NCBI GenBank assembly: GCA_005768725.1
Contig: VAFM01000002.1
Coordinates: 438,512-502,511 of the forward strand
Length of the DNA stretch: 64,000 bases
DNA from: Blastochloris viridis
GTDB lineage: Bacteria; Pseudomonadota; Alphaproteobacteria; UBA2136; UBA6156
Direction: 5' to 3'
The notes beneath the pieces were generated by a model. That model had not been told where the DNA came from, ran no database searches, and was given only the letters and a program-made list of their open reading frames with translations. The number at the start of each line of letters is the position of its first letter. Position 1 is the stretch's first letter. Shown here one piece after another: positions 9,887 to 62,473 of this stretch. The translations under genes and the position numbers were made by a program.

Positions 9887-11722
9887 TTACAATCCCAGCT
9901 CGTCGGCCAGTTTTTCCGCCTCGGCCAGCCATACACCGGCACTGCTGGCAATCCCCGCTTCCCAGAATTCGCGGCTGTTGGGGTTAAGCCCGAACGGCTC
10001 CATCAGCTCCACCGCACTCTTGGTGCCCCCGGCCCGCAACAGGTCCAGATACAACGGCTCAAACCGGTCACCCAGCCGCGCACGCTGTGCCATCATGCTC
10101 TGCGTGAACAGTTCACCAAAGGCATAGGCATACACGTAGAACGATTCATAACTATAGAAGTGACTCACGTAGCACCACATGTTCTCAATGTCGGCATAGG
10201 TGAAAGTTTCCCCCTCCGGCCCATAGAAGCGCTTGGTCATCTCCATCCACAGACGCGAGTAATCCTCCTCCATCAGCTTGCCGTTCACGCGCTCGGCAAA
10301 AAACGCCTGCTCAAACTGAGAGAAACAGATCTGACGCACCACGGTGTTCATGAAGTCGTTGATCTTATCCATATACAGCGCCAGCTTCTCGGTCGGGTCG
10401 CTGAGCTGAGACATAAGACTTTCAAATGTCAGCATTTCCCCGAACACACTCGCGGTCTCGGCATACGGCATCGGCGCATGCCACGTCAGGCTGCTTTGCG
10501 CCTCCAGCGCCAGCAGGCCGTGTACGGCATGGCCCAATTCATGCGCCAGCGTCATCACGTCCCCCGCACTGCCCAGGTGGTTCAGCATCATATAGCTACG
10601 GTCATCCTTGTCCGGCAGCGCCACGGTATAATCAAACGCCCCGCCGCTCTTGTTCGGCACCGGCGGTGCATCCACCCACCCCTTTTTCGGGTCCAGTACG
10701 GTGTCCACCAAGGCACCCAAGGTCGGCGAAAACGCACGATACGCCTTTTTCACCACATCGCAGCTGGTCGCCCAGTCATAAATGGTATCCGCCGCAAACG
10801 GCATCGGTGCATTGCGGTCACTCCAGGCCAGCGTTTCCAGGCCCAGCATTCGCGCCTTCAAGCGGTAAAACCGCTGCGCCAGCTTACCGGCCTTGTCTTC
10901 CACGCCCTCATGCAGCACCTGCACGGTGGCATCGTCCACCATATTGCTCAGGTTCTTTTTCTGCATCGGGTGCGTAAATCCACGCGCCTTGTCATTGGCC
11001 AGATGCGACCCCACATGAACGTTCAGCGTCCGCGCCGCATAAAAATCGTGTTTGGAGGCTTTGAGCTGGGCATTCAGCGCTTTCATCGCCGCTGCCCGGC
11101 GTGCACGGTCGCGATCTTCGGCCATCACGTGCAGAATTTCCGGCAGATTATAGGTCTTACCTTCAAAATCGATCCGCAGGTCACCCTCCAGTTCGTCCAT
11201 CAGGTTCGACCACGCGCCTGCACCGAACGGCCCCTGCATGGTCAGCACCGACTCCGCCTCTTCGCCCAGATAATGCGCCTGCACCTTCTGGTTATGCCGG
11301 ATGTACGACAGATGCTTGACCACCTGCGGATGACCCATCTGCTGCTCCACCGCGGCATCACTCAGCTTTCCCATTTCCAGGTCAAAGAAGGTCAGGTGCA
11401 TCGCGCTGGCCTGGGCCAGTTTTTCGTTCACGCGGCTGGAAACCTTTTCCGCCGCCTTGTCGGCCGAGTTTCGCGCCAGCGTGAGGAAGAAATAGATCCC
11501 GAGCTTCGACCCGCGGCGGTTCAGCGGTTCCATCGCCGCAAACGCCTCACCCAGCTTATGGTCAAGCTTGCCCTTATAGGCCGCTTCAAACGCGGCCATA
11601 CCCTGCACCTGCGCCGCCACATCCGCCTCAATCTGTGGGTCATCGAGACCCTTATACAGTTGTGTCAGATCCCAACGGATCGTCTCGGTGCCAAGCGCAG
11701 AAGAGCTGGTATCACGGGCCAT
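9887..11722 (-). CDS. pepF: M3-family oligoendopeptidase F
   Basis: HELGHAVH zinc motif. I chose the ATG at 11722 (MARDTSS..., 611 aa) over the longer track ORF. Confidence 0.88.
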   Translation of the reverse strand: MARDTSSSALGTETIRWDLTQLYKGLDDPQIEADVAAQVQGMAAFEAAYKGKLDHKLGEAFAAMEPLNRRGSKLGIYFFLTLARNSADKAAEKVSSRVNEKLAQASAMHLTFFDLEMGKLSDAAVEQQMGHPQVVKHLSYIRHNQKVQAHYLGEEAESVLTMQGPFGAGAWSNLMDELEGDLRIDFEGKTYNLPEILHVMAEDRDRARRAAAMKALNAQLKASKHDFYAARTLNVHVGSHLANDKARGFTHPMQKKNLSNMVDDATVQVLHEGVEDKAGKLAQRFYRLKARMLGLETLAWSDRNAPMPFAADTIYDWATSCDVVKKAYRAFSPTLGALVDTVLDPKKGWVDAPPVPNKSGGAFDYTVALPDKDDRSYMMLNHLGSAGDVMTLAHELGHAVHGLLALEAQSSLTWHAPMPYAETASVFGEMLTFESLMSQLSDPTEKLALYMDKINDFMNTVVRQICFSQFEQAFFAERVNGKLMEEDYSRLWMEMTKRFYGPEGETFTYADIENMWCYVSHFYSYESFYVYAYAFGELFTQSMMAQRARLGDRFEPLYLDLLRAGGTKSAVELMEPFGLNPNSREFWEAGIASSAGVWLAEAEKLADELGL

Positions 11723-11788
11723 GCAGGCGTTACTCCTTATTATAGACGCGCAAAATCCCACACCCCCCGTTCCAGCACAACCCCAAAA

Positions 11789-11925
11789 TCCGGCGCAAAG
11801 CGCCGTTGCCCCCGCGCACGAGACATAAACGGACATCCAGGCATGTTTTGACGGGGCGCCGTGTACGGCAAAAGGGTACATCAGCCACGTCAAAACGTGG
11901 TCGGGGGCCGTCTGAGTCCGCGCTC
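11789..11925 (+). repeat. Nested-hairpin intergenic repeat, copy A
   Basis: GGCGCAAAGCGCC hairpin, then GTTGCCCCCGCGCACG, a stem CATGTTTTGACG/CGTCAAAACGTG, the apex GTGTAC-GGCAAAAGG-GTACAT, and a closing GGGGGC. It aligns with copies at 22193, 60334 and 43210. Confidence 0.8.
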
Positions 11926-12157
11926 TTAAGTGCTTCAAAGCCACACAGGTGTGACTCATGTCACAACTACCCCTTCCCAACCTGAACGAACCTGTTACTG
12001 TTCACTCACCCGCGCCTCCTCCCCCCACCCCTCGGCGCGGTTTACAATAAGGCCCGTCCCCCTACGGGCCCTTTTTTTGCCTTGGATTTTTACGGCTAAC
12101 CGACACAGATTGCGGCAAGAGTTGCCCCCACGCCCAGAAACGGGTACAAACGCCGCC

Positions 12158-13494: not shown

Positions 13495-13623
13495 CAAACG
13501 CTATCGCATACACTTATAAGAGGCCATGGTGTACAACAAGGCGGCCACACCCCATGGTTTGAATACCCTATGGTGGCGGCTGCATGCCTTCCAAGTGCCG
13601 CAAATCTCGGTAGATTGCTAGAC

Positions 13624-16600
13624 ATGCGCGCCCCCTCGCTCACGTTCCGCCTCATTGCCCTGTTGGGTGTCGCGGCAGCGTGGGTCGCTCCGGCTCATGC
13701 GCAGTGGACGGACATCGCCACCATTTCCAGTACATTAGGTAACAACGCCTCCCGCCTCTGTGTCGGCGGCGGCAAAACCGACCTCGGCTGCCCGGTATCA
13801 GCCCCTTATCTGGATATGGCCACTGGCAACCTCAGCATAGGCACCACCAGCCCCACAACCTATAAGTTGAACGTGGCGGGCGGTGCGAGCTATCTGCAAG
13901 GTGGTGTATTGGTAGGTAACGTGGCCAACGGGGTAAATAGCGCCCGTATTACAAGTGGCCTGGATAGCGCGACCTATATCAGTTTCCACTGGGGTCAGCC
14001 CGACATGACCTTCTATACCAATAACGCGCGCCGCATGACGATTGCCTCAGGCAACCTCGGCGCCGAATACGCCGGCCGCGTCGGTATCGGCAACATGACC
14101 TACCCGTCCGCCACACTGCACGTCTCCGGTACCATCCGCATGGCCAGCGGCGGCGAAGCCTGTGACGTAAACCGTACCGGTGCTATCCGTTACCAGGGCG
14201 GCATGTTCCAGATCTGTCAAAGCCCGGCCATCGGCTGGGAAGCCTTGGCCACGACCGGCGAAAATTCGGCGGTCGACCGCATCACCAGCAGCTCCATGGC
14301 CGGCGTCACGGCCAACGCCACCGGTTATATCAGCCTGACCACCGGCGGCGTGACCGGTACCGCCTACTTCACCCCGGCAAGCGTGTTAGTCAACGCCGGC
14401 GTCAGCGCCACCAATACCGTCTCCGCCAGCGGTGGTTACTTCGGCAGTATGCGTATCGGCCAGACCGGTGCCTTTACCAATGCAATCAGCCCGTTCCAGA
14501 GTTACGCCGACATTGTCGGTAACTATACCGGTATCGGCGGGGTAGAAATGCGCAACCAGAGCAATGGACCGAACGCCGAGTTCCGCTTCATGGTCTCCGA
14601 CGAGCGCGGTGGGGCGGGAACCCAGCTGGCCTTCACGATGCCGTCCAGCAACAATACGTCCAACCTGTTCGGCATACCCCGCAACCTGCTGGCAACGATT
14701 TTCGTCAACGCCACAAACGATGCTCAGAGCCGCGCCCTCGCCATCGGTACGCTCAAATCCAACCCGGTTATCTTTGCCGCCAATAATGCCGAACGCATGC
14801 GTATCGCGCCCAACGGCAACGTAGGTATCGGTACCACCACTCCCAGCTCCACACTTCACGTGATCGGCGACATCCGCGGCAGTAACGACATTTACATGCC
14901 CTACGGAAACAGCCTGCGTGCCGGTAGTTTCAACTACACCACAGTCCTCCAAACAGGCTGGAACGGCTGGGCCGATTACACCGCTCTGTTTACTCCGGGC
15001 AACGACGCCTCGAACGCTCTGCCGCGCATGGTATTGCTTTCCAACGGCAATGTCGGTATCGGCACCACCACCCCGACAACCGCTCTGCAGATTTCCGGTA
15101 CGCTGCGTGTGGCCTACGATAACGCTACCTGTGATGCCGACCACCTCGGTGCCATCAAGTACCAGTCCGGCCAGTTCCAGATCTGCCGCAACGGCAGCAC
15201 ATGGGAATACCTTGTTGCAGGCACCAATGCGACAGTGGATACCGACCGCATCACCTCCGGCACCGCCAGCGTGATTACCAGCGGTGCTTCGAACACAATT
15301 CAACTCCGCACCTTTAGCACCCCACGCATGACGGTTACCTCAAACGGCTTTGTAGGTATTGGCGAAACGTTACCAAGCGGCTTCCTCCATATCTCTGGAG
15401 CAAGCCTCGGTACGGCTGTTAATGATGTCGTTCGTCTGCAACGCCTGCAAACTCTCAACAATAGTCTAAGTCGTCTTGATTTCCTGAGCCTGCGCCATAC
15501 GGCTGGTAACAGCGCGTCCGAAGCCTCAAGCCGTATCCAGCAGATGACGGATGCCACATACCAAGGCTATATGGAATTCAATGGCCTCAATAATACAAAC
15601 GGTCTGGCCTTTGGTACAGGAAGTGCCCTCAGCAACTACGCAGGCGTACCGGAACGTATGCGCATCACAGCCGATGGTAACGTCGGTATCGGCAGCTCCA
15701 GCCCTACAACCAAACTGGATGTCGCAGGCACCCTGAAAGTCGCTGCGGGCGGAGAAGCCTGTGATGCCAACCGCACCGGTGCCATCAAGTACCAGTCCGG
15801 ACAGTTCCAGATCTGCCGCAACGGCACGAGTTGGGAAACGCTGATCGCAGGTAACAGCGGTACCGTCGATGCCGACCGCATCACCTCCGGCACCACCAGC
15901 ATGATTACCTACAATAACGACAAAGCCACCATCGCTACCGCCGGTGTCGAACGTGTGGTCGTCGGCGCTACCGGTAGCGTAGGTATCGCTCAGCAACCGG
16001 CTGTAGGTGTCGCTCTAGCGGTCTCGGGCAACACCTCCGTTTCCGGACGCCTTGGTGTTATCACTCCCGGTACAAACAACGTGTTTGTAGGTAATTTTGC
16101 AGGCGCCAACGCAACGGGTACCGAAAACACAGGTTTCGGTCAGGGGGCCCTGCAAGGTGTCAGCGGTCAGAACAACACGGCGGTCGGTCGTTATACCGCC
16201 CAGAACAACAGCGGTAACGACTCCTCCTTCTTCGGTAGCGGCAGCGGGCTTACCAACGCAGGTAATTCAGTTACGGGTGTGGGCCTCAACAGCTTACAAA
16301 ACAACTCGGCCTCTTATGTGGTAGGTGTCGGTACCAACGCAGGTCAAAGCAACCGTGCTACAGGTACTAACTCAGTCTTTGTCGGTAACGATTCCGGTCA
16401 ATTCAATTCAGGCGCAAGCACGGCCGCAATCGGTGCCGCGGCCGCCCAGCGTAATAGTGGCGACAACCTCAGCGCCATCGGTGTGAATGCGGGTCAATGG
16501 AACAGCGGTGCCAACGTGGTTGCAGCCGGTTTCAACGCCGCCCAGTTCAACGCAGGGAATTACGTCACCGCCGTCGGTCAACTGGCTGCCAACAAGAACA

Positions 16601-19428
16601 CTGCCGACCAGGTCACGGCTCTCGGTTACAATGCCGTCAGCGCCGTCAGCAATACGTTCAGCAATATCACCGGCTTGGGTTACGACGCCCAGCCGACCAA
16701 ATCCAACCAGATCATGCTGGGTAATACGCTGATCGACGAAGTCTTCAGCTACGGTGCCGGTGTCTTCGGTAAGTACATCCGCCCGGGCGGCCAGACCACG
16801 GCCCTGATGACCTCCGCTACCCTTGCTGGTGCCGGTGCCATTATGTACGACACCACCCTGAACTCGCTGCGCTACTCCGACGGTACCCAGTGGAACACGC
16901 TGGTAGGCCAGACAGGTTCCAGCGCGATGAATGCCGACCGCATTATCTCCGGCACCACCGCCGTGGTCGCCAATACCAACGCCAATACCGTCAGCGTAAC
17001 CACCGGCGGAACGACCACTTCGTACTTCCATTCCACAATTGGTCTGGTCGCACCGGGTGTATCTGCCACGGGTACGGTTTCGTCGGGAAATGTGAATACA
17101 GGCCTGGTCGTTCTGCGCGGTGTCGCGGGCGGCGCCGGTATTAGCCTCACAGCCCCGGGCGACAACCTCGGCAACCACACCGCCACACAAGACCTCGACA
17201 TGGCGGGCAACAACATTATCAACGCCAACACTATCAGTGCGACCAGCTTTACGGGTGACGGTTCCGGCCTCACCAACATCAACGCCGCGAACATCACGGG
17301 CCTCACCGCCGACCGCATCACCTCCGGCACCACGCAGGTAATAGCCAACCAAAACACCTCCCTCACCCTCGCCACAGCGGGCGTAGAGCGCATGGTCATC
17401 GGCACTGATGGCCGCGTCGGTATTGGTCAGCAACCGGCTACAGGCCGCGCACTCTCGGTATCCGGCAGCGTTGCCGTTGCCACAGGCTATGGCGCGTTGA
17501 ATAGCGGCCTCGCCATCGGTGGTCTCGGAGATTCCCCGAACATGGGTTCTATCGCATGGGGCGATAACAGCGGCTGGAAACTAAATTTCGGAACGGGGAT
17601 TGCGGGAGTATTTACGCCACGTGTCACCTTTATGGATACCGGCAACGTCGGTATCGGTACCACCAACCCGACGAGCAATCTTCATTTAAGCGGATCCAAC
17701 ACATTTATTGTCGGAATGATAGAGAATACAAACAATGTTGGTGCCGCTGAATTAGGACTAAAACGAGGTAATGTGGGCTGGTGGTGGTCTAACCGTCAAA
17801 CAGGGCTTGAGCTCGTTAATACTCAAGATGGCGGCACCACTTACCAAATTCCCATAGCTTTCGCTAACAACGGAAATGTCGGTATCGGTACATCAAACTT
17901 CAGCGCAATGGCACAGTTGGTTGTATCAACCACCACCAACCAATTCAGCGATGGTATCATTTCGTACGCAAACGATAAGTCCAACGGAGAATCGCAATTC
18001 ACCGCACTCGGTACAACCGGAAGCCTGCGACTGGCGGCTCAAAGCCATCCTGGCTCTTTCAATCCATTGGTTCAACAAGACGATGCCCGCATAACCTTTA
18101 ATGGAGGACTCAACACCGGCGGTTTGGTCATTGCCCCTTGGACTCCATCAACAAACGGCTTGCGTATGGATAACTTTGGTAAAATCGGTCTCGGCAAGGT
18201 AACGCCTACCACCACGCTAGATATCGCCGGCTCCGTCCGCCTCGCGGCTGAAACCAGCAGCACGCTGAACATCTGCGATGCTAACCGCACCGGTGCCATC
18301 AAGTTCGAATCCAACCAATTCCAGATCTGCCGTAACCCGGTAAGCGGATGGGAGACCCTCATTGCCGGCGCAGGCGGTTCGGTCGCCACCGACCGCATCA
18401 CCTCCGGCACCACCGGCATGTACACCTATAACAATACTTCGGCCACTATCGCCACGGCGGGTGTCGAGCGTGTGATTGTGGGCAGCAACGGCCGCGTCGG
18501 TATTGGCCAGCAGCCGGGTACCGAGGCCCTCTCCGTCTCGTCCACCCTGCGTGTGGGAGACGTCATCGTCGGCAACGAGAACGCCACCTCCAACCGCATG
18601 GAGATCGGTTACAACATTTCCACCAACAAGAGCGCCTATATCGACCTCATCGGCGATACCACCTACTCCGACTACGGCCTGCGCCTCTGGCGCACCGGCG
18701 GCGGCGCCAATGCCGACTCCTACCTGATGCACCGCGGTACGGGTACCCTCCACTTTACGGCTGAAGAAGCTGCCCCGATGCTCTTTAAAACCACCAATAC
18801 CGAGCGCCTACGCATCACCCCGGCAGGTCTGGTAGGTATCGGCACCTCCGCCCCCAGCAACAATCTGGAAGTGCTGAGCAATATTCAGGTCGCCACCGAC
18901 CCGTCCGCCAGCAGTCAGGCACAGATCAAGTTCGTCACGCAAGCCGCCTCGGGCCTCACCGGTAACGTCGGTGTCGGCGCTACCAAGGGCTGGACCATGT
19001 ACGCCCGCAACAGCATCTACGGCACGGCGCACGAGCAGAATGACCTCGGCTTCGCCTACTACGACGGCAGCACCTGGAAGACCCCGCTCTTTATCGACAG
19101 TCAACTCGGCTACATCGGCATGGGTGGCATCTCCAGCCCCACCGTGCAGCTCGATATCTCGGGTACCGTGGCCGGTAACATGCTGGTACTCAAAAACGTC
19201 TCGGGCAGTGCAGGTATCAGCCTCACCAGCGCGGGCGACAACCTCGGTAACCACACCGCCACGCAAAACCTCGACATGGCCGGTTTCAGCATCGTCAACG
19301 CCAGCAATATCACCGCCACCGGTAGCGTGCAGGCCGGTAATGCCGACACCGTCTGCTCCAGCACGGCCGACTACGGGAAGATGCGCTTCAACCCGGCAAC
19401 TAAAAAGATGTTCATGTGCCGTCCGTAA
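13624..19428 (+). CDS. Giant secreted fibre/adhesin-like repeat protein (1,934 aa)
   Basis: Signal peptide MRAPSLTFRLIALLGVAAAWVAPAHAQ. Reiterated GNVGIGTTTPxxxLxVxG and DRITSGT blocks. A run of YadA-head/Hep_Hag-like N-S-G repeats. DNLGNHTATQ[DN]LDMAG and SFTGDGSGLTNI are tail-fibre-like motifs. Five Cys-bracketed modules, the last one at the extreme C-terminus. Confidence 0.85.
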   Translation: MRAPSLTFRLIALLGVAAAWVAPAHAQWTDIATISSTLGNNASRLCVGGGKTDLGCPVSAPYLDMATGNLSIGTTSPTTYKLNVAGGASYLQGGVLVGNVANGVNSARITSGLDSATYISFHWGQPDMTFYTNNARRMTIASGNLGAEYAGRVGIGNMTYPSATLHVSGTIRMASGGEACDVNRTGAIRYQGGMFQICQSPAIGWEALATTGENSAVDRITSSSMAGVTANATGYISLTTGGVTGTAYFTPASVLVNAGVSATNTVSASGGYFGSMRIGQTGAFTNAISPFQSYADIVGNYTGIGGVEMRNQSNGPNAEFRFMVSDERGGAGTQLAFTMPSSNNTSNLFGIPRNLLATIFVNATNDAQSRALAIGTLKSNPVIFAANNAERMRIAPNGNVGIGTTTPSSTLHVIGDIRGSNDIYMPYGNSLRAGSFNYTTVLQTGWNGWADYTALFTPGNDASNALPRMVLLSNGNVGIGTTTPTTALQISGTLRVAYDNATCDADHLGAIKYQSGQFQICRNGSTWEYLVAGTNATVDTDRITSGTASVITSGASNTIQLRTFSTPRMTVTSNGFVGIGETLPSGFLHISGASLGTAVNDVVRLQRLQTLNNSLSRLDFLSLRHTAGNSASEASSRIQQMTDATYQGYMEFNGLNNTNGLAFGTGSALSNYAGVPERMRITADGNVGIGSSSPTTKLDVAGTLKVAAGGEACDANRTGAIKYQSGQFQICRNGTSWETLIAGNSGTVDADRITSGTTSMITYNNDKATIATAGVERVVVGATGSVGIAQQPAVGVALAVSGNTSVSGRLGVITPGTNNVFVGNFAGANATGTENTGFGQGALQGVSGQNNTAVGRYTAQNNSGNDSSFFGSGSGLTNAGNSVTGVGLNSLQNNSASYVVGVGTNAGQSNRATGTNSVFVGNDSGQFNSGASTAAIGAAAAQRNSGDNLSAIGVNAGQWNSGANVVAAGFNAAQFNAGNYVTAVGQLAANKNTADQVTALGYNAVSAVSNTFSNITGLGYDAQPTKSNQIMLGNTLIDEVFSYGAGVFGKYIRPGGQTTALMTSATLAGAGAIMYDTTLNSLRYSDGTQWNTLVGQTGSSAMNADRIISGTTAVVANTNANTVSVTTGGTTTSYFHSTIGLVAPGVSATGTVSSGNVNTGLVVLRGVAGGAGISLTAPGDNLGNHTATQDLDMAGNNIINANTISATSFTGDGSGLTNINAANITGLTADRITSGTTQVIANQNTSLTLATAGVERMVIGTDGRVGIGQQPATGRALSVSGSVAVATGYGALNSGLAIGGLGDSPNMGSIAWGDNSGWKLNFGTGIAGVFTPRVTFMDTGNVGIGTTNPTSNLHLSGSNTFIVGMIENTNNVGAAELGLKRGNVGWWWSNRQTGLELVNTQDGGTTYQIPIAFANNGNVGIGTSNFSAMAQLVVSTTTNQFSDGIISYANDKSNGESQFTALGTTGSLRLAAQSHPGSFNPLVQQDDARITFNGGLNTGGLVIAPWTPSTNGLRMDNFGKIGLGKVTPTTTLDIAGSVRLAAETSSTLNICDANRTGAIKFESNQFQICRNPVSGWETLIAGAGGSVATDRITSGTTGMYTYNNTSATIATAGVERVIVGSNGRVGIGQQPGTEALSVSSTLRVGDVIVGNENATSNRMEIGYNISTNKSAYIDLIGDTTYSDYGLRLWRTGGGANADSYLMHRGTGTLHFTAEEAAPMLFKTTNTERLRITPAGLVGIGTSAPSNNLEVLSNIQVATDPSASSQAQIKFVTQAASGLTGNVGVGATKGWTMYARNSIYGTAHEQNDLGFAYYDGSTWKTPLFIDSQLGYIGMGGISSPTVQLDISGTVAGNMLVLKNVSGSAGISLTSAGDNLGNHTATQNLDMAGFSIVNASNITATGSVQAGNADTVCSSTADYGKMRFNPATKKMFMCRP
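14100..18500 (+). repeat. Intragenic tandem duplications inside the giant gene
   Basis: 15130-15195 and 15760-15825 are almost identical at DNA level (tgtgatgcc..ggtgccatcaagtaccagtccgg.cagttccagatctgccgcaacggc). GACCGCATCACCTCCGGCACC recurs near 15244, 15874, 17314 and 18394. Confidence 0.8.
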
Positions 19429-20816
19429 TCCGCCATCTCGTCCTCGTTGCGGGGCTGGTTCTGGCCAGCCCCGTGGCCGTCTGGGCTGCATGTACCTCTC
19501 CGGCGGGCAATGCGGGCGCGGTCATTTTCAGCACCACGGCTAAAACCATGCAATACTGCAATGGCACCAACTGGGTGAACACCGGCGCCTCCGTCCCGGC
19601 CGCCACGCAATCCGGCTGTACCAATCCCACCGGCGCGCCGGGCGCGGTCATCTATGCCAAACCCCGCGGTGTCGTGCAGTTCTGTAACGGACAAGACTGG
19701 GTCGATACCTCCTGCGCCGCCGACCGTTCTCCCAACGGCTCGGGCTGCGGCGGCAAGGCCCCTGGCACCATCCAGTACAGCAGTACCGCGAATGAGCTCC
19801 AGTTCTGCGACAGCACCAACTGGGTCGCCATGGGCTGGGGCTGCGCCGGGAGTAGCGGCGGGAGCAGTGGCGGTAGCTGCGGCAGCGGAGATCTGGGCTG
19901 GACGAATATCGCAGGGGCCGGTAACCACCAATGGTCTCAAATCTTCGTGACGGCCGATGGCAGCAAGATCTACGCATTGGCCACCGACGGCCTCTACCGC
20001 AGTACCGACAGTGGCGCAACATGGAGCGGGCCGATAGCGACCGGCGGCCAGACATTCAATTCTTTAACGGGCAACAGCGACGGCAGCATTCTCTACGCCA
20101 TAAACGACAGTAACAAACTGTACAAAAGCACCAACAACGGCACAAGTTGGAGTCTCATGACCACCAGCCACGACGTAAGTACAGTCTCGATCAATACCAC
20201 AGGTTCACTGATATGGATTTTTGATTCTTCCAATTACATCCTCAGTTACAGTAGTAACGGAGGTGCGTCATGGACCACCGTTACAAAACCAGACCCGGGA
20301 GCCAGTCGGGTTTACACAAGCGTAAGTATATCCGCCGACGGTTCCAACGCCTATGTCGCCGTACTCAACCTGATGACCTCTGGTTCCAAACTCTTCCGCA
20401 GCACCGACTCGGGCGCATCCTGGACTGAAATCTATTCAGTTCCAAACGCATACATATACTTATCTCCTATATCATCCAACGGCAGCATTATTTCAATGCA
20501 AGTTATAGGCCTTTCAGGTTCAGGCAGCACAACCATGTTAAGTACCAACAGTGGTACATCATGGGCCAGTTCGGGTTTGCCACAAGACATCATTATATTC
20601 TCCATGTCAGCCGATGGCACAAAGATGATTGCAGGCCCCTTGGAAGCAGATGTGCTCATACGTCCGCGCATGAGCGTAAACTCCGGTGCCACTTGGACAG
20701 AGCAGACCAGCTTGAACACAACGATGTATGTGGGGGCTATTTCCGCGCAAGGAAACAAGTTTGTGATTTCCGAAGTTGGCGCCAGCACTCCATTGCAAAC
20801 CAGTAGCTGCCCATAA
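19416..20816 (+). CDS. Secreted protein: triple Cys-module N-terminal cassette plus BNR/Asp-box beta-propeller-like domain
   Basis: The GTG start overlaps the end of the giant gene. Signal peptide, then 3 modules (ACTSPAGNAGAVIFSTTAKTMQYCNGTNW, GCTNPTGAPGAVIYAKPRGVVQFCNGQDW, GCGGKAPGTIQYSSTANELQFCDSTNW). Six Asp-boxes (STDSGATWS, STNNGTSWS, SSNGGASWT, STDSGASWT, STNSGTSWA, SVNSGATWT). Confidence 0.85.
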   Translation: MPSVIRHLVLVAGLVLASPVAVWAACTSPAGNAGAVIFSTTAKTMQYCNGTNWVNTGASVPAATQSGCTNPTGAPGAVIYAKPRGVVQFCNGQDWVDTSCAADRSPNGSGCGGKAPGTIQYSSTANELQFCDSTNWVAMGWGCAGSSGGSSGGSCGSGDLGWTNIAGAGNHQWSQIFVTADGSKIYALATDGLYRSTDSGATWSGPIATGGQTFNSLTGNSDGSILYAINDSNKLYKSTNNGTSWSLMTTSHDVSTVSINTTGSLIWIFDSSNYILSYSSNGGASWTTVTKPDPGASRVYTSVSISADGSNAYVAVLNLMTSGSKLFRSTDSGASWTEIYSVPNAYIYLSPISSNGSIISMQVIGLSGSGSTTMLSTNSGTSWASSGLPQDIIIFSMSADGTKMIAGPLEADVLIRPRMSVNSGATWTEQTSLNTTMYVGAISAQGNKFVISEVGASTPLQTSSCP

Positions 20817-20827
20817 CAGAACACGCT

Positions 20828-21598
20828 ATGTCTATGCGCTTCACCCTCACCCTCCTCGCGGTTTTCCTCCTGCCCCTGGCAGCCCATGCTGCCTGTACCT
20901 CTCCCGCGGGCAATGCCGGAGAAGTGGTGTTCAGCACCACCGCCAAGACCATGCAGTACTGCAATGGTACCAACTGGGTGAACACCGGTGCCTCCAATCC
21001 CGCCGCCACGCAAAGCGGCTGCACCAGCCCCACCGGCCCTGCCGGTGCCGTGGTGTACAACGGCAGCCTCGGTGTCATTCAATTCTGTAACGGCCAGAAC
21101 TGGGTCAATACCGCCTGTGCATCCAACCGCACACCGGGCGGCTCCGGCTGCGGCGGCAAGCCCGCAGGCGCCATCCAATACGTTGGCGGATCCGTCAACG
21201 AACTCCAGTTCTGCGACAGCACCAACTGGGTCACCATGGGCTGGGGCTGCAGCGGTAGCGGTGGCTCTTCTACCCCCGCCGACACCACCCCCCCTGTCTG
21301 GCAAACCGCCGCCACGCTCCCTGAAACCGAAGCCGGTTCAGGGGTTCCCTACTCGGTCACCTTTACCGCGACAGACGCCGTCTCCAGCGTCACCTACTCG
21401 CAGGATGCCCCCATGTCCCCCGCGGTGCCCCCGGGCATGGCCTTCAACTTAGCAAGCCGCACTCTCAGCGGTACCCCCAACTATGGAACCGAAGGTACCT
21501 ACACACTTATCCTCACGGCGACAGATGCCTCTGGAAATGCGATAACCCGTACTTTTACACTCAAGATCAACCCGAACTCGGCACCCGGACCAGAATAA
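20828..21598 (+). CDS. Secreted protein: triple Cys-module N-terminal cassette plus putative Ig (He_PIG/cadherin-like) domain
   Basis: Signal peptide MSMRFTLTLLAVFLLPLAAHA followed by the same 3 modules. The C-terminal LSGTPNYGTEGTYTLILTATDASGNAITRTFTLKI is typical of the putative Ig domain. Confidence 0.85.
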   Translation: MSMRFTLTLLAVFLLPLAAHAACTSPAGNAGEVVFSTTAKTMQYCNGTNWVNTGASNPAATQSGCTSPTGPAGAVVYNGSLGVIQFCNGQNWVNTACASNRTPGGSGCGGKPAGAIQYVGGSVNELQFCDSTNWVTMGWGCSGSGGSSTPADTTPPVWQTAATLPETEAGSGVPYSVTFTATDAVSSVTYSQDAPMSPAVPPGMAFNLASRTLSGTPNYGTEGTYTLILTATDASGNAITRTFTLKINPNSAPGPE

Positions 21599-22067: not shown

Positions 22068-22192
22068 CTCCGGCCTCCCTCTCTAGGGTCAGACGCCGTA
22101 CCGGCCCCTGACGGTTAAATTGAATACAGTATGCATATAAACCCATTTCACCAAAATGCAACCCTAAAAACAAAGAGGGTTGCTACCCCCTT

Positions 22193-22330
22193 CCGCCGCC
22201 TTTAGGCGGCGTTGCCCCTGCGCACGCGATGACAAACGGCCATCCTGATTCTTTTTCGTGGGGCGCGGTGTACAGGAAAAGAGTACATAAGCCACACGAA
22301 AAAGGATTAGGGGGCCGTTTTAATCCGTGC
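22193..22330 (+). repeat. Nested-hairpin intergenic repeat, copy B
   Basis: GCCGCCTTTAGGCGGC hairpin, GTTGCCCCTGCGCACG, stem CTTTTTCGTG/CACGAAAAAG, apex GTGTAC-AGGAAAAGA-GTACAT, closing AGGGGGC. Its 3' end overlaps the cmk stop. Confidence 0.8.
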
Positions 22331-28459: not shown

Positions 28460-28488
28460 TTGCTTATTTGGTCAGCATCCGTTATATC
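28460..28488 (+). promoter_or_regulatory. Sigma70-type promoter candidate for fusA
   Basis: TTGCTT-N17-TATATC, about 38 nt upstream of the fusA ATG. Confidence 0.4.
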
Positions 28489-28525
28489 CCGCAAGAAGTT
28501 TAGTAAAAGCAGGAAAGTACCTTAC

Positions 28526-30607
28526 ATGGCCCGCACAACCCCAATGAGCAAAGTCCGTAACATCGGCATTATGGCGCACGTTGACGCCGGTAAAACCACC
28601 ACGTCCGAACGTATTCTGTACTACACCGGCCGTACCCACAAAATCGGTGAAGTGCACGAAGGCGCCGCCACCATGGACTGGATGGCTCAGGAGCAGGAAC
28701 GCGGTATTACCATTACCTCGGCCGCGACCACTGCCGAATGGAAAGGCTACACCTTTAACCTGATCGACACACCGGGACACATCGACTTCAACATCGAAGT
28801 AAAGCGTTCGGTCCGCGTTCTCGACGGCGTTATCGCCGCCTTCGACGCCGTATCGGGTGTTGAGCCGCAATCCGAAACCAACTGGGGCCACGCCTCCAAC
28901 TACGGTGTGCCGCGTCTGTGCTACGTCAACAAGATGGACCGCGTCGGTTCCAACTTCCTGCGCTGCGTCGACATGATGAAGGAGCGCCTGCGTGCCAACG
29001 CTGTTCCGATCCAGCTGCCGATCGGTTCCGAAGACAACTTCAAGGGCATGATCGACCTCGTCGAAATGAAGGCTCTGGTTTACAACGGCGAAGAGCTGGG
29101 CGCGACCTGGGACGTTCTCGACATCCCGGCCGAACTGAAGGCCGAAGCCGACAAGTGGCACAACAACCTGGTCGAAGTGGCCGTGGAATTCGATGACGAA
29201 GCCATGAACGCCTACCTCGAAGGCAACGAGCCGTCCGTTGAAACCCTCAAGAAGTGCATCCGTAAGGGTACCGTGGAAATGAAGATGTTCCCGGTTCTCT
29301 GTGGTTCGTCCTTCAAGAACAAGGGTGTTCAGCCGCTGCTCGACGCTGTTATCGCTTACCTGCCGGCTCCGGATGAAATCGACGAAGAGAACGTCAAGGC
29401 CGAACTGCCGGATGGCTCCGAGATCACCCTCAAGATCGGCGACGATCAGCCGCTGGGCGCCCTGGCATTCAAAATCGCCACCGACCCCTACGTTGGTACC
29501 CTCACCTTCGTACGTGTTTACACCGGTGTGATCAGCTCGGGTACCGCCGTGTACAACGCCACCCGTCAACGTTCCGAGCGTATCGGCCGTATCGTGAAGA
29601 TGCACGCCAACAAGCGCGAAGAAGTGACCGAACTGCGTGCCGGTGACATCGGCGCTCTGATCGGCCTGAAGGACACCCGTACCGGTGACACCCTCTGCGC
29701 TGAAGGCAAAGACTACATGCTGGAAACCATCAAGGCGATGGATCCGGTTATCGCCATGGCCGTTGAGCCGAAGTCCAAGGGCGACCAGGAAAAGATGGGT
29801 ATCGGCCTCGGTAAGCTGATGGCAGAAGACCCGAGCTTCCGCGTTTACACCGATGAAGAAACCGGCCAGACCATTCTGGCAGGTGTAGGTGAGCTTCACC
29901 TCGACATCATGGTGGACCGCCTCAAGCGCGAACACAAAGTCGAAGTTAACACCGGTGCGCCGCAGGTATCGTACCGCGAAACCATCACCAAGACCGCCGA
30001 GTGCGAAGGTTCGCACAAGAAGCAGTCCGGTGGTCGTGGTCAGTACGGTCACTGCTGGGTCAAGTTCGAGCCGAACGAAACCGGTAAGGGCTTCGAATTC
30101 GTTAACGCCATCGTCGGTGGTGTGGTTCCGAAGGAATACATCCCGGCCATTCAAGCGGGTATTGAAGAATCCCTCAAGAACGGTATGTACGCTGGCTACC
30201 CGGTTGTCGACGTCAAGGCCACTCTGTTCGATGGTAGCTACCACGACGTAGACTCCTCCGAAATGGCGTTCAAGATGGCCGGTATTCTTGCCGTGAAGGA
30301 AGCCGCCAAGAAGTGTGCACCGCAACTGCTCGAGCCGATCATGAAGATGGAAGTCACCGTACCGTCCGACTTCATGGGCGACGTGATCGGCGACCTGTCC
30401 TCCCGTCGTGGTCAGATCACCGGTACCGAAGACCGCTTCGGCCAGACCGTGGTCAAGGCTTTCGTACCGCTGGCCAACCTGTTCGGTTACGTAACCTCCC
30501 TGCGCTCCATGACCCAGGGCCGCGGTTCGCCGTCCATGGAATTCGACCACTACGATCCGGTACCAAGCAACGTAGCGACCGAAATCGCTGCCAAAAGAGC
30601 CGCGTAG
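28526..30607 (+). CDS. fusA: Elongation factor G
   Basis: [35 protein letters not shown]...DTPGHIDF. 693 aa from the ATG at 28526. Confidence 0.97.
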
Positions 30608-30657
30608 CAGCTCTTTCAACGCGAAGCGTAACCAAGCTGCCTAAGGCAACCGCCTCA

Positions 30658-43209: not shown

Positions 43210-43368
43210 CGCCAACCAACGGTTGGCGTTCGTTTCGGCCCCGGAATTCGCTGTGCAGGAGGGATTTTTGATTTTCTCCGCAGACGCGAGCACCGCAAGT
43301 GTACAAACAAGTACATGCGGAGCGCAGGGGCAAGGAAAAATCAAAAAGCACCCTGCACAGTAGAATTC
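43210..43368 (+). repeat. Nested-hairpin repeat, divergent copy D
   Basis: A short hairpin CGCCAACC-AAC-GGTTGGCG, then a 125-nt hairpin (GAATTC..CTGTGCAGG..GATTTTTGATTTT..CTCCGCA / TGCGGAG..AAAATCAAAAAGC..CCTGCACAG..GAATTC) with the apex GTGTAC-AAACAA-GTACAT. Confidence 0.7.
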
Positions 43369-43373
43369 GGATC

Positions 43374-45164
43374 ATGAAGAAGCACTTAATCACCTCAGCT
43401 ATTCCCTATGTAAACGGCGTTAAGCACTTAGGTAACCTCGTCGGCTCCATGCTCCCCGCCGACGTCTACAGCCGCTTCCGCCGCCAGTTGGGCCAACTCG
43501 ATGGCTCCGCCACGCTGTTCATTTGCGGTACCGACGACCACGGCACACCGGTGGAGATTGCCGCCCAGAAGGAAAACACCCCGGTGGCCGACTTTGTGAA
43601 GCACTGGCACGACTTCCAGGCCGACATCTACACCCGTTTCGGCCTCAGCTTCGACCACTTCGGTTCATCCTCCAGTCCGCAGAACCGCGTCCTCACCCAG
43701 CATTTTGCCCAAAAATTGAAGGACGCCGGTCTCATCGACGTCCGCACTCAGACCATGCTCTACAGCAAGGCCGACGGCCGCTTCCTGCCGGACCGCTACG
43801 TCGAGGGCGAATGCCCCAAATGTCACTTCGGCAAGGCCCGTGGCGACCAGTGCGACAACTGTGGCTCGGTGCTCGACCCCACCGACCTCATCAATCCCTA
43901 CTCCAGCATTTCGGGCAGCCGCGACCTCGAACTGAAGGACAGCAAACACCTGTACCTCAAGCAGTCGCAACTGGTCGACAAACTCCGCACCTGGATCGAC
44001 GCGCAGGACTGGCCGAACCTTAGCAAATCGATCGCCTACAAGTGGCTGGATGAAGGCCTGGAAGACCGCGGCATCACCCGCGACATCAAATGGGGTGTAC
44101 CGGTGCCGCCAGAGGTCTTCGGCGACGACTTTGCCGACAAAGTCTTTTACGTCTGGTTCGACGCGCCCATCGCCTACATCGCCGCCACCAAGGAGTGGGC
44201 CGACAAACAGGGGCTGGACGACTCCGCCTGGCGCGACGACTGGTGGTTCGGCAACCCGGATGTCGAGTACACCGAGTTCATGGGCAAGGATAACGTCTAC
44301 TTCCACACTCTCTCCTTCCCCGCCACTCTCATCGGCAGCGGTGAACCCTGGAAGAAGGTCGATACCCTCAAATCCTTCAACTGGCTCACCTACTATGGCG
44401 GCAAATTCTCCACCTCCATGGGGGTCGGCATTTTCACCGATACCGCCCTGGAACTGCTGGAAAACATCGACAACGGCCCGGACTACTGGCGCTACTACCT
44501 TATCGCCCGCACACCGGAGTCCGACGACAGCGCCTTCATGTGGCCGGACTTCCAGGCCGTGGTGAACAAGGACCTCGCCGACGTGCTGGGCAACTTCATC
44601 AACCGCACGCTTCAGTTCACACACAAGAATTTCGGCACCAGCGTTCCCGCCTCCTCCGGTACCTACACCGAGGCCGACCAGGCCTGCGCCAAGCGCCTCA
44701 ACGATATCCTCGTGCGCTACACCACGCACATGGAGCGTGCCGAGATGCGCAAATCGCAGGAAGCCCTGCGCGAACTCTGGGTTGCCGGCAACGAGTATCT
44801 GGCCGAACAGGAACCGTGGAAGGTCATCAAGACCGATAAAGACCGCGCCGCGACCATCCTCAATCTGGCGATCCACATGATCGTGCTCTACGCCCGCGCC
44901 ATGGCGCCCATCTGCCCGTTCTCGGCCGCCAAGATCATGGCCCTGTTCCCGGAGCTTGAGGCCCCGACCAGCATGGTACCCGCCGCCAAAGGCATGCCCG
45001 CCCACATCAACACGCCGTGGGCCTGGCCGCGTAGCCTGCAAGACTTCCACGGAACCCTGCCGCAGCTCACCACCTTCACCCTGCCCGAAGGCGTGCTCTT
45101 CCCCAAAATCGCCGACGAACAGATCGCCGAATGGGAACAGCGCTTCGGCAACCAGAAAATCTAG
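43374..45164 (+). CDS. metG: Methionyl-tRNA synthetase
   Basis: ITSAIPYVNGVKHLGNLVG (HIGH region), CPKC...CDNCG zinc knuckle, KFSTSMGVG (KMSKS region). I chose the ATG at 43374. Confidence 0.93.
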   Translation: MKKHLITSAIPYVNGVKHLGNLVGSMLPADVYSRFRRQLGQLDGSATLFICGTDDHGTPVEIAAQKENTPVADFVKHWHDFQADIYTRFGLSFDHFGSSSSPQNRVLTQHFAQKLKDAGLIDVRTQTMLYSKADGRFLPDRYVEGECPKCHFGKARGDQCDNCGSVLDPTDLINPYSSISGSRDLELKDSKHLYLKQSQLVDKLRTWIDAQDWPNLSKSIAYKWLDEGLEDRGITRDIKWGVPVPPEVFGDDFADKVFYVWFDAPIAYIAATKEWADKQGLDDSAWRDDWWFGNPDVEYTEFMGKDNVYFHTLSFPATLIGSGEPWKKVDTLKSFNWLTYYGGKFSTSMGVGIFTDTALELLENIDNGPDYWRYYLIARTPESDDSAFMWPDFQAVVNKDLADVLGNFINRTLQFTHKNFGTSVPASSGTYTEADQACAKRLNDILVRYTTHMERAEMRKSQEALRELWVAGNEYLAEQEPWKVIKTDKDRAATILNLAIHMIVLYARAMAPICPFSAAKIMALFPELEAPTSMVPAAKGMPAHINTPWAWPRSLQDFHGTLPQLTTFTLPEGVLFPKIADEQIAEWEQRFGNQKI

Positions 45165-56634: not shown

Positions 56635-56829
56635 CGTAAGAGAATCCTTTTGTTGAGGTTATTCAGGAAAGCGATGGTACTCCACACCAACCGCTTCGCT
56701 CTGTCAATCAACCATTAAACGCACGTAAGGTTCCAACCCCTTCGCGAAGTCAGCCCTCAGTAAGAAAATACACTCAAGAGAGAATGAGCAAAAACACCGT
56801 CGCGCCGCAACTTGCCCCCGCGCACGCGG

Positions 56830-58845
56830 TTATTGCTTGCACACCTGCAGGCGGAAGTCTCCCCCACCCACATCAATATAACGCATCTGTCCGCGCTGGC
56901 CTGGCGCACAGGCCTCGGCACCGGTACCTGCCACCTGCACAGTCCCGGCTACGGCCAGATTCTTGTTGGTCTGATTCCAGACAATACTGTTGGAGCCGGA
57001 AATCTCATTCAGCGCACCCTTGAACTGCACACTGCCGACGATACCGGCCGCTTCAAGGTTACCGGCATTGATACCCGTCAACTGGCTCCCGTCACCGGAG
57101 AACGACGTCGCACTGACCGTTCCGGTCGCCTGCAAACCGCCGTTGGCAAAACTCACGCCGTCAATGCTCTGGCTACCGCTCACATACAGGTTGCCTGTTA
57201 CGCGCAGATTGGTGAACGTCCCGGCCGCCGGGTTCGTACCGCCGATCACGGTGCCGTCGATCGCACCACCATGGATCACCACGGTATTGCTGTTCTGCAA
57301 GGCCATATCGCCCAGACCCAAAGCCGTATTGGCCGCCACACAGGCAAAGGCATTAGTGCTGCTATTCCAGCTTAACACTTCACCGGTGCTACATTGGGCG
57401 GGGGCACCGCGGTCACACACCACACTGCCGCTGGCATGGTCGTAATAACACCATTTGCCGTCATTACCGGCACCAAGACCCGCCAGCTTGTCCTGCACGG
57501 CTTTCCATTTGCCGTTGTCATAGCGCAGAAAATCGTTGTTATTGGGGCTCAACGTCGTATTAGCATCCACGCGCACGTCACCCAGTTCCACAAGGTCAAG
57601 GGGGTCAGAGGCACCACCGGCATCACTCACACAGGTCAAATTGGTACCATCCCCGGTCAATACCTGCCCGGTGGTACAGGTCGGCAGAGTATTCTGGGCA
57701 AAGCCCTGAACCGTGCCCGGTACCCATTTCTGGCTGGTCAGGTCGTATTTCACAAACTGCCCGTCAGCAACACCGCTCACGTTCACGTCGTCCAAGTTAG
57801 CAAAGGTCAGCGGGTCAGCGCTACCACCCGCGTCGTTCACACAGGTCAGGCTGGTACCATTGTAAGTCAGCACCTGCCCGGCGGCACAGCTGGAAAGCGT
57901 CGTCTTAGCCCAATCCGGCACGGTCGGATCCATTTCACTCCCGGCCACCCACTCGGTGCCGTTGTAAATCAGTACGGTACCGCTGGTCTGGGCGCTGGTG
58001 TTCACATCACTCAGGTCGCCCAGTGCCAAGGCACCTTCCAGTGCATCACCGGCCGCTTCACATTTCAGAATCACTTTCCCATCCTGCGTGACCGAACGCA
58101 GAATTTCGCCGCTGCCACAGGCTGCCAGGCTGTAACCGGGGATATCGGTACGGGCAAACGCCGCCGTGAACGGGTCAGCTTCCTGCGTGATACCCACACT
58201 GTCCACACGGCAAAGCAGATTACCGCCAACCATGGTCAGCATTTCATTGGTGGCACAGTTCGGCAGGGCCGGGTTGGTGTCGGTGCGTGCAAAGCTATGC
58301 ACCAGGGGGTCTTGTTCACGCGTAATCCCCTTCTGGTCGGGGATACACGTCAACGAGTCACCGCTCGCACTCAGAACCTGCTCGCTACCACAGTTCGGCA
58401 GCGGAGACTTGGCAAAACCTTGCACGGTCGGGTCGGTTTCGTTGCTCACAAAGCCGCTCTGTACACACGAGAACTCACCGCCGGTCACACCCAGAATGCT
58501 GCCGCCACTACAGGTCGGCAAAGCTTTCTTGGCAAAACCCTGTACGGTCGGGTCGGTTTCGCGGTCACATACCCAGTTGGTACCGGTATAGCGCAATTTG
58601 TCCCCGGCATCGGGGCAGCTGCCCAACTGGGCTTTGGCGTGGGGCTGTACCTTGGCCATTTCGGTATTCAGCACATCCACATCGCCTTCCACTTTAGAAA
58701 GACGGGCATTGGTCTTGGCATTCTGCAATCCGCGGCCACCGCTCTGGGTAAAGAACTGTTCCTGCGCCTGGGGGGCCGCCAGTGGCAGCAGCAAACCGGC
58801 CAGCATAGGCACCGCCAGCACCAGCCAAAGGCGCGAACGCAGCAT
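56830..58845 (-). CDS. Secreted Cys-pair repeat protein with tail-fibre-like C-terminal region (671 aa)
   Basis: Signal peptide MLRSRLWLVLAVPMLAGLLLPLAAPQAQ. At least 7 repeats of [ET]DPxVxxFAxxxLPxCxxGxxLxxxGxxLxC. L[GD]DV...G..L.Y.G..W repeats. SFSGDGSQLTGINAGNL. It ends with ACAPGQRGQMRYIDVGGGDFRLQVCKQ. Confidence 0.8.
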   Translation of the reverse strand: MLRSRLWLVLAVPMLAGLLLPLAAPQAQEQFFTQSGGRGLQNAKTNARLSKVEGDVDVLNTEMAKVQPHAKAQLGSCPDAGDKLRYTGTNWVCDRETDPTVQGFAKKALPTCSGGSILGVTGGEFSCVQSGFVSNETDPTVQGFAKSPLPNCGSEQVLSASGDSLTCIPDQKGITREQDPLVHSFARTDTNPALPNCATNEMLTMVGGNLLCRVDSVGITQEADPFTAAFARTDIPGYSLAACGSGEILRSVTQDGKVILKCEAAGDALEGALALGDLSDVNTSAQTSGTVLIYNGTEWVAGSEMDPTVPDWAKTTLSSCAAGQVLTYNGTSLTCVNDAGGSADPLTFANLDDVNVSGVADGQFVKYDLTSQKWVPGTVQGFAQNTLPTCTTGQVLTGDGTNLTCVSDAGGASDPLDLVELGDVRVDANTTLSPNNNDFLRYDNGKWKAVQDKLAGLGAGNDGKWCYYDHASGSVVCDRGAPAQCSTGEVLSWNSSTNAFACVAANTALGLGDMALQNSNTVVIHGGAIDGTVIGGTNPAAGTFTNLRVTGNLYVSGSQSIDGVSFANGGLQATGTVSATSFSGDGSQLTGINAGNLEAAGIVGSVQFKGALNEISGSNSIVWNQTNKNLAVAGTVQVAGTGAEACAPGQRGQMRYIDVGGGDFRLQVCKQ
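57340..58620 (-). repeat. Intragenic Cys-pair repeat array
   Basis: 20 cysteines arranged as 10 consecutive pairs, with 10-22 residues between the two Cys of a pair (counted in my translation). Confidence 0.75.
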
Positions 58846-59058
58846 GCGGGCGACGAATCTGTTCACTCTTGTTCCTTTTTGGGGGCTTGCACGAGGATTT
58901 CTGACATTTACTCTCGCAAACCAGCGCTCATTCCACAATCGTCCTACCGGCTTTTACACCAAACGAGCGCACCCGCTATGGCCGCTCCGCCACAAATCAG
59001 GGCCCTTACAACAGGCAATCCGCTTGCCCAAAAAGACGCGAGGGCGTATGCACTTTGC

Positions 59059-60333: not shown

Positions 60334-60468
60334 CCGGCGCAAAGCGCCGTCGCCCCCGCGCGCGAGGTTGAAACGGACATCCGGATGCGTTTTGGCAGGG
60401 CACGGTGTACAAAAACAAAGGTACATAAGCCATGCCAAAACGTGTTCGGGGTTCGTTTCAAACCGCGC
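60334..60468 (+). repeat. Nested-hairpin intergenic repeat, copy C
   Basis: GGCGCAAAGCGCC hairpin, GTCGCCCCCGCGCGCG, stem CGTTTTGGCA/TGCCAAAACG, apex GTGTAC-AAAAACAAAG-GTACAT. Confidence 0.8.
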
Positions 60469-62266: not shown

Positions 62267-62473
62267 GGCCCGAGCCTACCAGCCCTGCTGCGCTGCACCA
62301 ATGCTTTCTGCACACCTCTCCCCCGCTTTGACTGACCCCCTGTGACCTTTAAACGCAGGTGAGTCCTCACCCCTCTGTTACCCTGTGTCACCCGTGCACA
62401 GACCCCTCCACCAAAACACATCTCCCTCTCAGGCCTGTCGGGACGGATGAGGTACGCAATGGCATAATAAGAC

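Follow-up and report, generated by a model that had tools for sequence, protein, structure and literature searches.

A stretch of 64,000 nucleotides from Blastochloris viridis (GenBank contig VAFM01000002.1, positions 438,512 to 502,511; here called the window, meaning the whole of that stretch) contains four copies, A to D, of a long imperfect hairpin preceded by a short one. We give an even chance to the reading that these copies belong to a large unnamed family of non-autonomous mobile hairpins of uncultured Alphaproteobacteria, which is broadly like the miniature inverted-repeat transposable elements (MITEs) and the REPINs built from repetitive extragenic palindromes (REPs), and which is read in single-stranded form. 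The unit consists of a short GC hairpin, a leader of 10–25 nt (GTYGCCCC-like) and an imperfect hairpin of 105–125 nt (Table 1). In the window the copies lie 10–20 kb apart after housekeeping genes, about four per 64 kb. The apex pattern GTGTAC-N(4-14)-GTACAT has four matches there, all on the + strand (11861, 22268, 43299 and 60405), where 0.03 are expected by chance and four matches were reached in none of 100 shuffles. The + strand of copies A, B, C and D folds with energies of -60.4, -76.6, -75.1 and -62.4 kcal/mol (z of -2.8, -8.3, -7.1 and -6.5), the minus strand more weakly (-58.2, -66.3, -61.3 and -57.3 kcal/mol), and DNA folding parameters again make the + strand the more stable one in all four.

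An earlier note on this DNA had taken A, B and C for one family, and they do align over their full length and score 107–129 bits with a covariance model. The changes it had read in the middle stem are present and complementary (TTTTGACG/CGTCAAAA, TTTTTCGTG/CACGAAAAA and TTTTGGCA/TGCCAAAA). A strict pattern finds 8 loci in two metagenome-assembled genomes (MAGs), Alphaproteobacteria bacterium C4_MAG_00017 and Proteobacteria bacterium UBA6156. Over 11 copies RNAalifold gives 43 pairs, 19 with compensatory changes, and several G.U pairs are invariant. The covariance model built from these 11 (the note had proposed one from its four copies) found further members with compensated arms and even a compensated apical stem (e.g. 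GAATAC/GTATTT). One covariance model fits A, B, C and 22 further copies from related MAGs and metagenome contigs. In 26 close copies, whose alignment was fitted to the covariance model and so somewhat favours the structure, 96.3% of cells pair and both sides have changed in 32 of the 43 pairs, which none of 500 shuffles reached; their covariation score is 0.41, against at most 0.10 after the partners were slid. The covariation that the note had read as selection on structure is strong, and survives both controls. Its outer helix does not: GCCCC[CT]/[AG]GGGGC scores 0.090 in the 26 copies against 0.087 in shuffles, and the G-run of the copies pairs with CATCC in the 5' arm, not with GCCCCY of the leader.

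Copy D has its plan and apical stem in common with A to C, as had been noticed, and its leader too, but nothing more. The A–C model gives it 9.2 bits (E about 6), so that it goes undetected; this full-model score rules D out as a member of the A–C model, and we treat it as a sister type. Copies related to D are found in metagenome locus L031, and a leader resembling its own occurs in L004 and L008.

The earlier note knew of no named family, and the searches agree with it. With Rfam 15 the window gives only two tRNAs at gathering thresholds, nothing over 11700–12000 at E<=10, and nothing overlaps the hairpins of ten other loci at E<=1. The apex pattern has no match in viral contigs, BLAST of the consensus against plasmids gave none, and literature searches on strand-biased hairpin repeats and on the apex sequence returned nothing relevant. 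One sub-threshold Rfam match, to sRNA-Xcc1, lies in locus L102 (278–358, minus strand; 39 bits, gathering threshold 53, E 0.0006), about 1.4 kb from two hairpin copies and on the same strand as they are.

With an apex-only pattern (GCGCSGTGTAC..GTACATMAGC) the search was taken to metagenomes and gave 116 loci, including a few coincidences in coding sequence (L085, L110, L114, L129 and L016). The expected apical stem stands on a hairpin in 145 of 152 apex matches, and in 104 of 157 that hairpin has at least 25 paired bases. Removal of redundancy left 87 independent insertion sites, with arms unrelated to those of the window. The apex-bearing loci come from rumen, gut, soil and water samples and have flanking DNA of 36–66% GC; all nameable neighbour genes are alphaproteobacterial. 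The window's Cmk and MetRS have relatives that bear the label of Alphaproteobacteria MAGs, and all named relatives of the ArgRS from a locus of 46% GC bear it too. Only the apical module is constant between lineages. It has the form C-GCS-GTGTAC-loop-GTACAT-AA-G, in which a 6-bp stem GTGTAC/GTACAT stands on a 3x2 internal loop GCS/AA, and the arms below it can be of any sequence that pairs. A second 3x2 loop, G(C/A)N/AA, is present in 36 of the 87 hairpins, its commonest position being 14 bp below the first. The ends of the arms differ between subfamilies (GCGCGAGG.., AAAAATCCGG.., GGGCTTGG.. and GAATTCGCTG..), the conserved block being the apex.

One particular strand of the element is the folding one. 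Across the 87 sites this strand (+ in the window) has 259 G.U pairs, 87 of which are the apex closing pair required by the pattern, against 22 A.C mismatches, along with 81 single G.A or A.G mismatches. It is more stable than its complement at 82 sites (mean -56.1 versus -48.1 kcal/mol). The element itself is purine-rich and its flanks, on the folding strand, are C-rich. Is the excess of G.U pairs simply the result of mutation pressure? The local bias (C>G, A>T) would convert G.U to A-U or G-C pairs and make A.C mismatches, which suggests instead that pairing on the folding strand has been selected.

The orientation of the copies is strict with respect to strand composition. On the folding strand the GC skew of the flanks is negative at 82 of 87 sites (94%), and at sites with flanks of at least 3 kb it is negative at 66 against 3; the copies within any single locus are all oriented alike. 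On the leading strand G usually exceeds C, and the folding strand thus has lagging-strand polarity. In the window the + strand has a skew of -0.09 to -0.18 in every 8-kb interval. The uniform absolute orientation of the window copies, which the earlier note had pointed out against flanking genes that face all ways, is therefore real and is explained by the folding strand following the C-rich strand. The skew of this lineage is strong, uniform and independent of gene orientation, with absolute values of 0.15–0.29 in relatives (L004–L011 and L132–L138).

A second rule concerns genes, the copies having a strong preference for gene 3' ends. At 61 of 71 sites (86%) the gene that adjoins the hairpin on its 3' side runs on the other strand; the median distance from its stop codon to the hairpin is 4 nt, and often the hairpin includes this codon. 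Neighbours at the 5' end are divided 32/32 between the strands, at a distance of about 140 nt. This rule is not a mere consequence of the first, since about 60% of the coding bases of the loci are on the G-rich strand. Nine of its ten exceptions still obey the skew rule. Within the window B, C and a solitary leader obey it, and A and D break it. The two rules fit no known mechanism.

Copies are also gained and lost at orthologous sites, for which loci were retrieved through homologues of Cmk and MetRS. Copy B follows cmk in the window and in C4_MAG (L132; 88% Cmk identity), where its apex carries a mutation. It is missing from L133, L134 and L135 (Cmk identities of 81, 79 and 75%). In these relatives cmk ends otherwise, for example with IEAKLGTRG*, and a promoter-like region and a terminator are recognisable downstream; a stretch homologous to the presumed native cmk terminator is present in the empty site of L133. 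These ends and this terminator show that unit B was inserted whole, with its small GC hairpin; it took the place of the final cmk codons and lies upstream of the gene's terminator. The small GC hairpin had been considered as a pre-existing terminator that served B as its target, and was rejected, the whole unit being missing from the empty sites.

Copy D is missing from L134 and L135, which have a 49-nt spacer instead. L136 and L137, whose MetRS is 86% identical to that of the window, are collinear with it up to CCGGAATTCG and have the small hairpin and leader and no long hairpin; the MetRS of L137 (a short ENA contig of 16.5 kb; protein P0242) is identical to that of L136. For D the small GC hairpin may have been a pre-existing target, since hairpin and leader persist in L136 without the long hairpin. 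The same leader-only state is seen in L008 and at window positions 56798–56829, where the earlier note had recorded a shorter fragment (56808–56828); it is real and comprises the leader and the first 10 nt of a 5' arm. Such sites have probably arisen by deletion of the long hairpin. Alternatively, the leader may itself be the target of insertion. The MetRS of L136 (QFOU01000004.1) is labelled 'MAG: ... [Pseudomonas fluorescens]'. The contig has the genes clpB, DUF2256, metG, gyrB, heparinase and MCP in synteny, and because of this synteny with an alphaproteobacterial window and the 86% protein identity it is probably a mislabelled MAG.

In L135 an A-type copy, absent from this site in the window, lies 21 nt past the stop codon of gyrB and antisense to that gene. 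Copy A, by contrast, has an ortholog in L094 with flanks 82–89% identical to those of the window; about 25 of 120 positions differ between the two, among them paired changes such as GACG/CGTC versus GGCG/CGCC. The family is carried by the lineages of the window, C4_MAG and L135, and there is no copy in the 14–22 kb available from each of the lineages L133, L134, L136 and L138. Did the window copies then arise in one segmental duplication that took flanking genes along? The earlier note had allowed for this, and it does not apply: the flanks are unrelated, with different pairs at A, B, D and C (pepF/hslO, lipoprotein/cmk, DUF2256/metG and wecB/motB), and B and D are missing at orthologous sites of relatives.

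Many low-GC loci contain one to three truncated units, with leader, 5' arm and apex and no 3' arm, upstream of a complete element; such tandem arrays are present in L017, L028, L044, L055, L066, L078, L080, L084, L100, L102, L109 and L115. The units break off 0–9 nt past GTACATAAGC. Nested insertion that re-uses the 3' arm of the resident copy was tried as an explanation and rejected: the single 3' arm of L080 fits the adjacent last unit and not the first, so that simple nested insertion fails for these arrays. For REPINs, clusters have been attributed to insertion into or beside existing copies, and asymmetric putative intermediates have been proposed (PMC3116915).

The earlier note had left a choice between a structured RNA and a REP- or MITE-like element. 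Insertion and loss, the nested or truncated arrays and the lack of any promoter found favour the second over an independent RNA gene; the form that folds may be DNA or RNA. How might such an element spread? We propose that the apical module, when single-stranded, is recognised by a protein acting in trans, which then moves or copies the element. The form recognised would most likely be single-stranded DNA (ssDNA) at the replication fork, and could also be RNA. Only copies whose folding strand still pairs could then propagate, which would account for the compensatory changes. An element placed between a stop codon and a terminator would ride, antisense, in the 3' untranslated region (UTR) of the gene, and would be largely tolerated or mildly useful there.

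Several observations weigh against this proposal. No transposase, recombinase or reverse transcriptase recurs beside the elements in about 0.9 Mb of loci read in pieces of 8–20 kb, and a crude regular-expression scan of the loci for the HUH/Y1 motif, which is a weak test, gave no match. A clear target-site duplication was not seen in the comparisons at B and D. Between filled and empty D sites GAATTCG stands on both sides, and it occurs also in the inverted termini of other D-type copies; at B the relatives are too diverged for comparison. Copies A and B have been retained at orthologous sites across species 11–18% apart in nucleotide sequence. The unpaired bases of the folding strand are A/G-rich and resemble those of functional RNAs. 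The apex is kept across a very wide range of GC content, which could mean a host function; its conservation in metagenomes is partly imposed by the search pattern, which does not impose that of its surroundings. The genes of the loci were called with a home-made heuristic based on GC content by codon position. Finally, the orientation is opposite to that of IS200/IS605 elements, in which the active strand belongs to the G-rich lagging-strand template.

Candidate partners of the element were also sought among its neighbours. About 3000 open reading frames (ORFs) from the loci were clustered, which brought out nothing but orthologous loci from the same species; a seeming link to argS came from one gut species sampled many times, and no parent insertion sequence (IS) with identical ends is present in the loci read.

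More specifically, these elements could constitute a new structure-specific class, in which two G(C/A)N/AA loops and the GTGTAC/GTACAT cap would be read by a protein on one strand only, and whose insertion or survival would be coupled to replication direction as well as to leading-strand gene 3' ends. We advance this tentatively and regard it as possible at best. If true, it would mean a new mechanism of ssDNA transposition or retro-copying, or a strand-specific marking of gene ends by the host across a deep alphaproteobacterial clade.

A host function at gene ends is a serious rival to the mobile element, if in our judgement an unlikely one. Here the hairpin would be a cis-acting module of gene 3' ends (an exonuclease barrier, an RNase III site, a terminator or an insulator that keeps head-on transcription out of the gene) that was spread by duplication and kept for its function, and the apex would be the site of a putative host RNA-binding protein. 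Hairpins set against stop codons with a median gap of 4 nt are what this predicts, as are the retention of A and B across species and the purine-rich unpaired bases and frequent G.A and G.U pairs of the folding strand, which are common in structured RNAs. The chief objection is that the strand that folds best is antisense to the adjoining gene, so that the gene's own mRNA carries a weaker version with A.C and C.U mismatches. Intrinsic termination was rejected as a general explanation, because just 16 (folding strand) and 18 (complementary strand) of 87 hairpins have six or more T among the 12 nt that follow them, much alike on the two strands, and a simple terminator scan calls none of the four window copies. 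Terminator-like subfamilies do occur: low-GC ones are flanked by A5 and T5 runs and resemble bidirectional terminators, and many A-type copies carry the small GC hairpin and GGATTTT on the minus strand, which is that of the gene. No promoter that could produce a + strand RNA is seen at B, which is set between two minus-strand genes. Close relatives lack the element after the same genes, and the truncated arrays and solitary leaders resemble products of mobility and decay.

Retro-copying, to which we give little credence, would begin with a gene's 3' UTR, which runs antisense to the element as far as the small GC hairpin. Its reverse transcription would give the folding + strand as cDNA, a hairpin ssDNA like the msDNA of retrons, which would then enter the genome as lagging-strand DNA. 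Transcription very probably takes in the element as part of the adjoining gene's 3' UTR, the folding strand complements that RNA and has lagging-strand polarity, and units with leader, 5' arm and apex are what a cDNA that stops at the apex would leave. Against this, there is no reverse transcriptase among the annotated ORFs of the window and loci, which are part of their ORFs, homology arms and poly-A-like signatures were not found, and we know of no bacterial precedent for a retro-copied element of this kind.

It is also improbable that the hairpins are structure-specific sites of a tyrosine recombinase, integron-like or scattered, that are recombined as folded single strands in the manner of attC. 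In its behaviour the family is similar: attC is recognised by structure as a single strand whose unpaired or wobble positions fix the active strand, and here one strand folds with the help of unpaired bases (259 G.U versus 22 A.C) and is antisense to the adjoining gene (61 of 71). The bottom strand of attC is antisense to the preceding ORF and, in chromosomal arrays, on the leading-strand template, again as here. The breakpoints of the truncated arrays cluster just 3' of the apical stem. But the R and L core boxes (RYYYAAC/GTTRRRY) are absent from the base, and a variable base with a conserved apex is the reverse of attC. The copies stand 10–20 kb apart after housekeeping genes and not in cassette arrays, and neither the window nor the loci showed an integrase (intI) near them. 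Small RNA genes in many copies, each transcribed on its own, can hardly be the answer; a conserved, covarying structure with one preferred strand would be expected of them, but no promoter-like sites were found at the window copies, there are about four copies per 64 kb, copies overlap coding sequence such as the end of cmk, they are inserted and lost between relatives, and their orientation follows GC skew and not a transcription signal.

Among known repeats the family is best filed as an interspersed hairpin repeat of MITE- or REP-like kind with no named family. REPs are often found directly after stop codons. With the REPINs and their REP-associated tyrosine transposases (RAYTs) it has in common that intergenic, multicopy, non-autonomous hairpins of about 100 nt form in the single strand and that new copies insert into or beside old ones. 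Unlike here, a REPIN consists of two inverted short REP palindromes with conserved ends, whereas in the present family the apex is conserved and the arms are free. The hairpin foot has no conserved GTAG-type head here, and neighbour clustering and the crude HUH..Y scan revealed no RAYT in the loci read (8–20 kb pieces), although a single-copy gene may lie elsewhere in the genome. The copies also keep a strict orientation with respect to both GC skew and the gene beside them.

MITEs such as the Correia or NEMIS repeats of Neisseria and the ERIC sequences of enterobacteria are similar in being 100–170 bp long, intergenic and composed of inverted-repeat halves that form a long hairpin, and in that they may enter UTRs. 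Terminal inverted repeats are present here in the sense that the whole element is one imperfect inverted repeat. A classical MITE, however, is recognised by terminal repeats shared with a parent IS and by a target duplication (TA, for example), whereas here the termini vary by subfamily, no parent IS is known and no clear duplication is seen. The orientation of the present family is also fixed, and an extra asymmetric leader that includes a small hairpin stands on its 5' side. The ends of IS200/IS605 elements and their miniature derivatives, the palindrome-associated transposable elements (PATEs), offer recognition of a hairpin on one strand, replication-coupled transposition and an orientation bias (PMC6006769). 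They differ in having two separate subterminal hairpins, where the present family has a single long one on a C-rich folding strand.

REP, ERIC and Correia repeats are common, and the movement and role of most are poorly understood. The present family gives clean handles on both, and since filled, empty and leader-only sites can be compared in close relatives, the mechanism is testable. It may lead to an undescribed enzyme specific for ssDNA or RNA. In 3' UTRs the repeats give rise to long shadow hairpins, and as in cmk they change the C-termini of proteins; they are also useful for marking a clade of Alphaproteobacteria that is little known and has an extreme strand asymmetry.

Table 1. Positions of the hairpin units and associated features in the window.
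Feature	Positions	Strand	Remarks
Copy A, short GC hairpin CGGCGC-AAA-GCGCCG	11791–11805	+	Preceded by AAAATCC; from sequence and fold; kept in the orthologous L094 copy
Copy A, leader GTTGCCCCCGC	11805–11815	+	Unpaired in the fold
Copy A, long imperfect hairpin	11816–11923	+	Apex 11861–11881; model match 11805–11924, 106.7 bits
Copy A, surroundings			pepF (minus strand, probable start ~11723) on one side, hslO (ATG 11958, + strand) on the other
Copy B, short GC hairpin CGCCGCC-TTTA-GGCGGCG	22194–22211	+	Missing along with the rest of B from L133–L135
Copy B, leader and long hairpin	22211–22221 and 22222–22330	+	Apex 22268–22288; model match 129.3 bits
cmk, last 7 codons and stop (..ARIKTAP*)	22307–22330	-	Encoded in the 3' arm of copy B; ORF translation, Pfam Cytidylate_kin
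Terminator-like hairpin with T run	22172–22193	-	Just past copy B; probable native terminator of cmk
Copy D, short GC hairpin CGCCAACC-AAC-GGTTGGCG (43210–43228) and leader TTCGTTTCGGCCCCG	43210–43243	+	
Copy D, long hairpin GAATTCGCTG...CAGTAGAATTC	43244–43368	+	Apex 43299–43316
Solitary leader	56798–56829	+	CTTGCCCCCGC between a degenerate short hairpin and, after it, the first 10 nt of a 5' arm, GCGCACGCGG
Copy C, short GC hairpin CGGCGC-AAA-GCGCCG	60335–60349	+	From sequence and fold
Copy C, leader and long hairpin (60360–60468)	60349–60468	+	Apex 60405–60426; model match 120.1 bits

The neighbouring genes in the window were named with Pfam. Copy B is between two minus-strand genes, a lipoprotein gene and cmk. 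Copy C is downstream of wecB and its terminator, and its 3' end is 11 nt from the stop codon of motB (60480, minus strand; Pfam MotB_plug/OmpA). The solitary leader is directly against the stop codon (56830–56832) of a gene on the minus strand whose product is a secreted protein. None of the four copies has a predicted sigma-70-like promoter, and the only terminator-like site at them is the presumed native one of cmk just past copy B. Copy D is between the DUF2256 gene and metG, its 3' end 5 nt ahead of the metG ATG (43374). A relative that lacks D has AAGG before its ATG, and the window lacks AAGG at this place (43363–43376). With its foot 5 nt before the start codon and the AAGG missing, copy D may affect the initiation of metG translation.

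The window has other features as well. At 28460–30619 there are two ORFs of 715 aa on opposite strands; the one on the + strand is fusA (EF-G), and the one on the minus strand, which has no Pfam match, is probably a 'shadow' of base composition. A cluster of very large, repetitive secreted proteins occupies 13570–21598, 56830–58938 and 62471–64000. It includes an ORF of 1952 aa with no Pfam match, neighbours with Sortilin-Vps10/DUF6242 and He_PIG domains, a roughly 290-nt module common to 19484–19777, 20887–21180 and 62527–62820, a recurrent C-terminal Cys motif and Gly-rich repeats (63472–63925). Similar sites with an A-tract, a GC hairpin and a T-tract (AAAAAACCCGCC..GGCGGGTTTTTT) are present at 21614, 31402, 32244, 33405 and 39838, and look like ordinary bidirectional terminators unrelated to the long hairpins.

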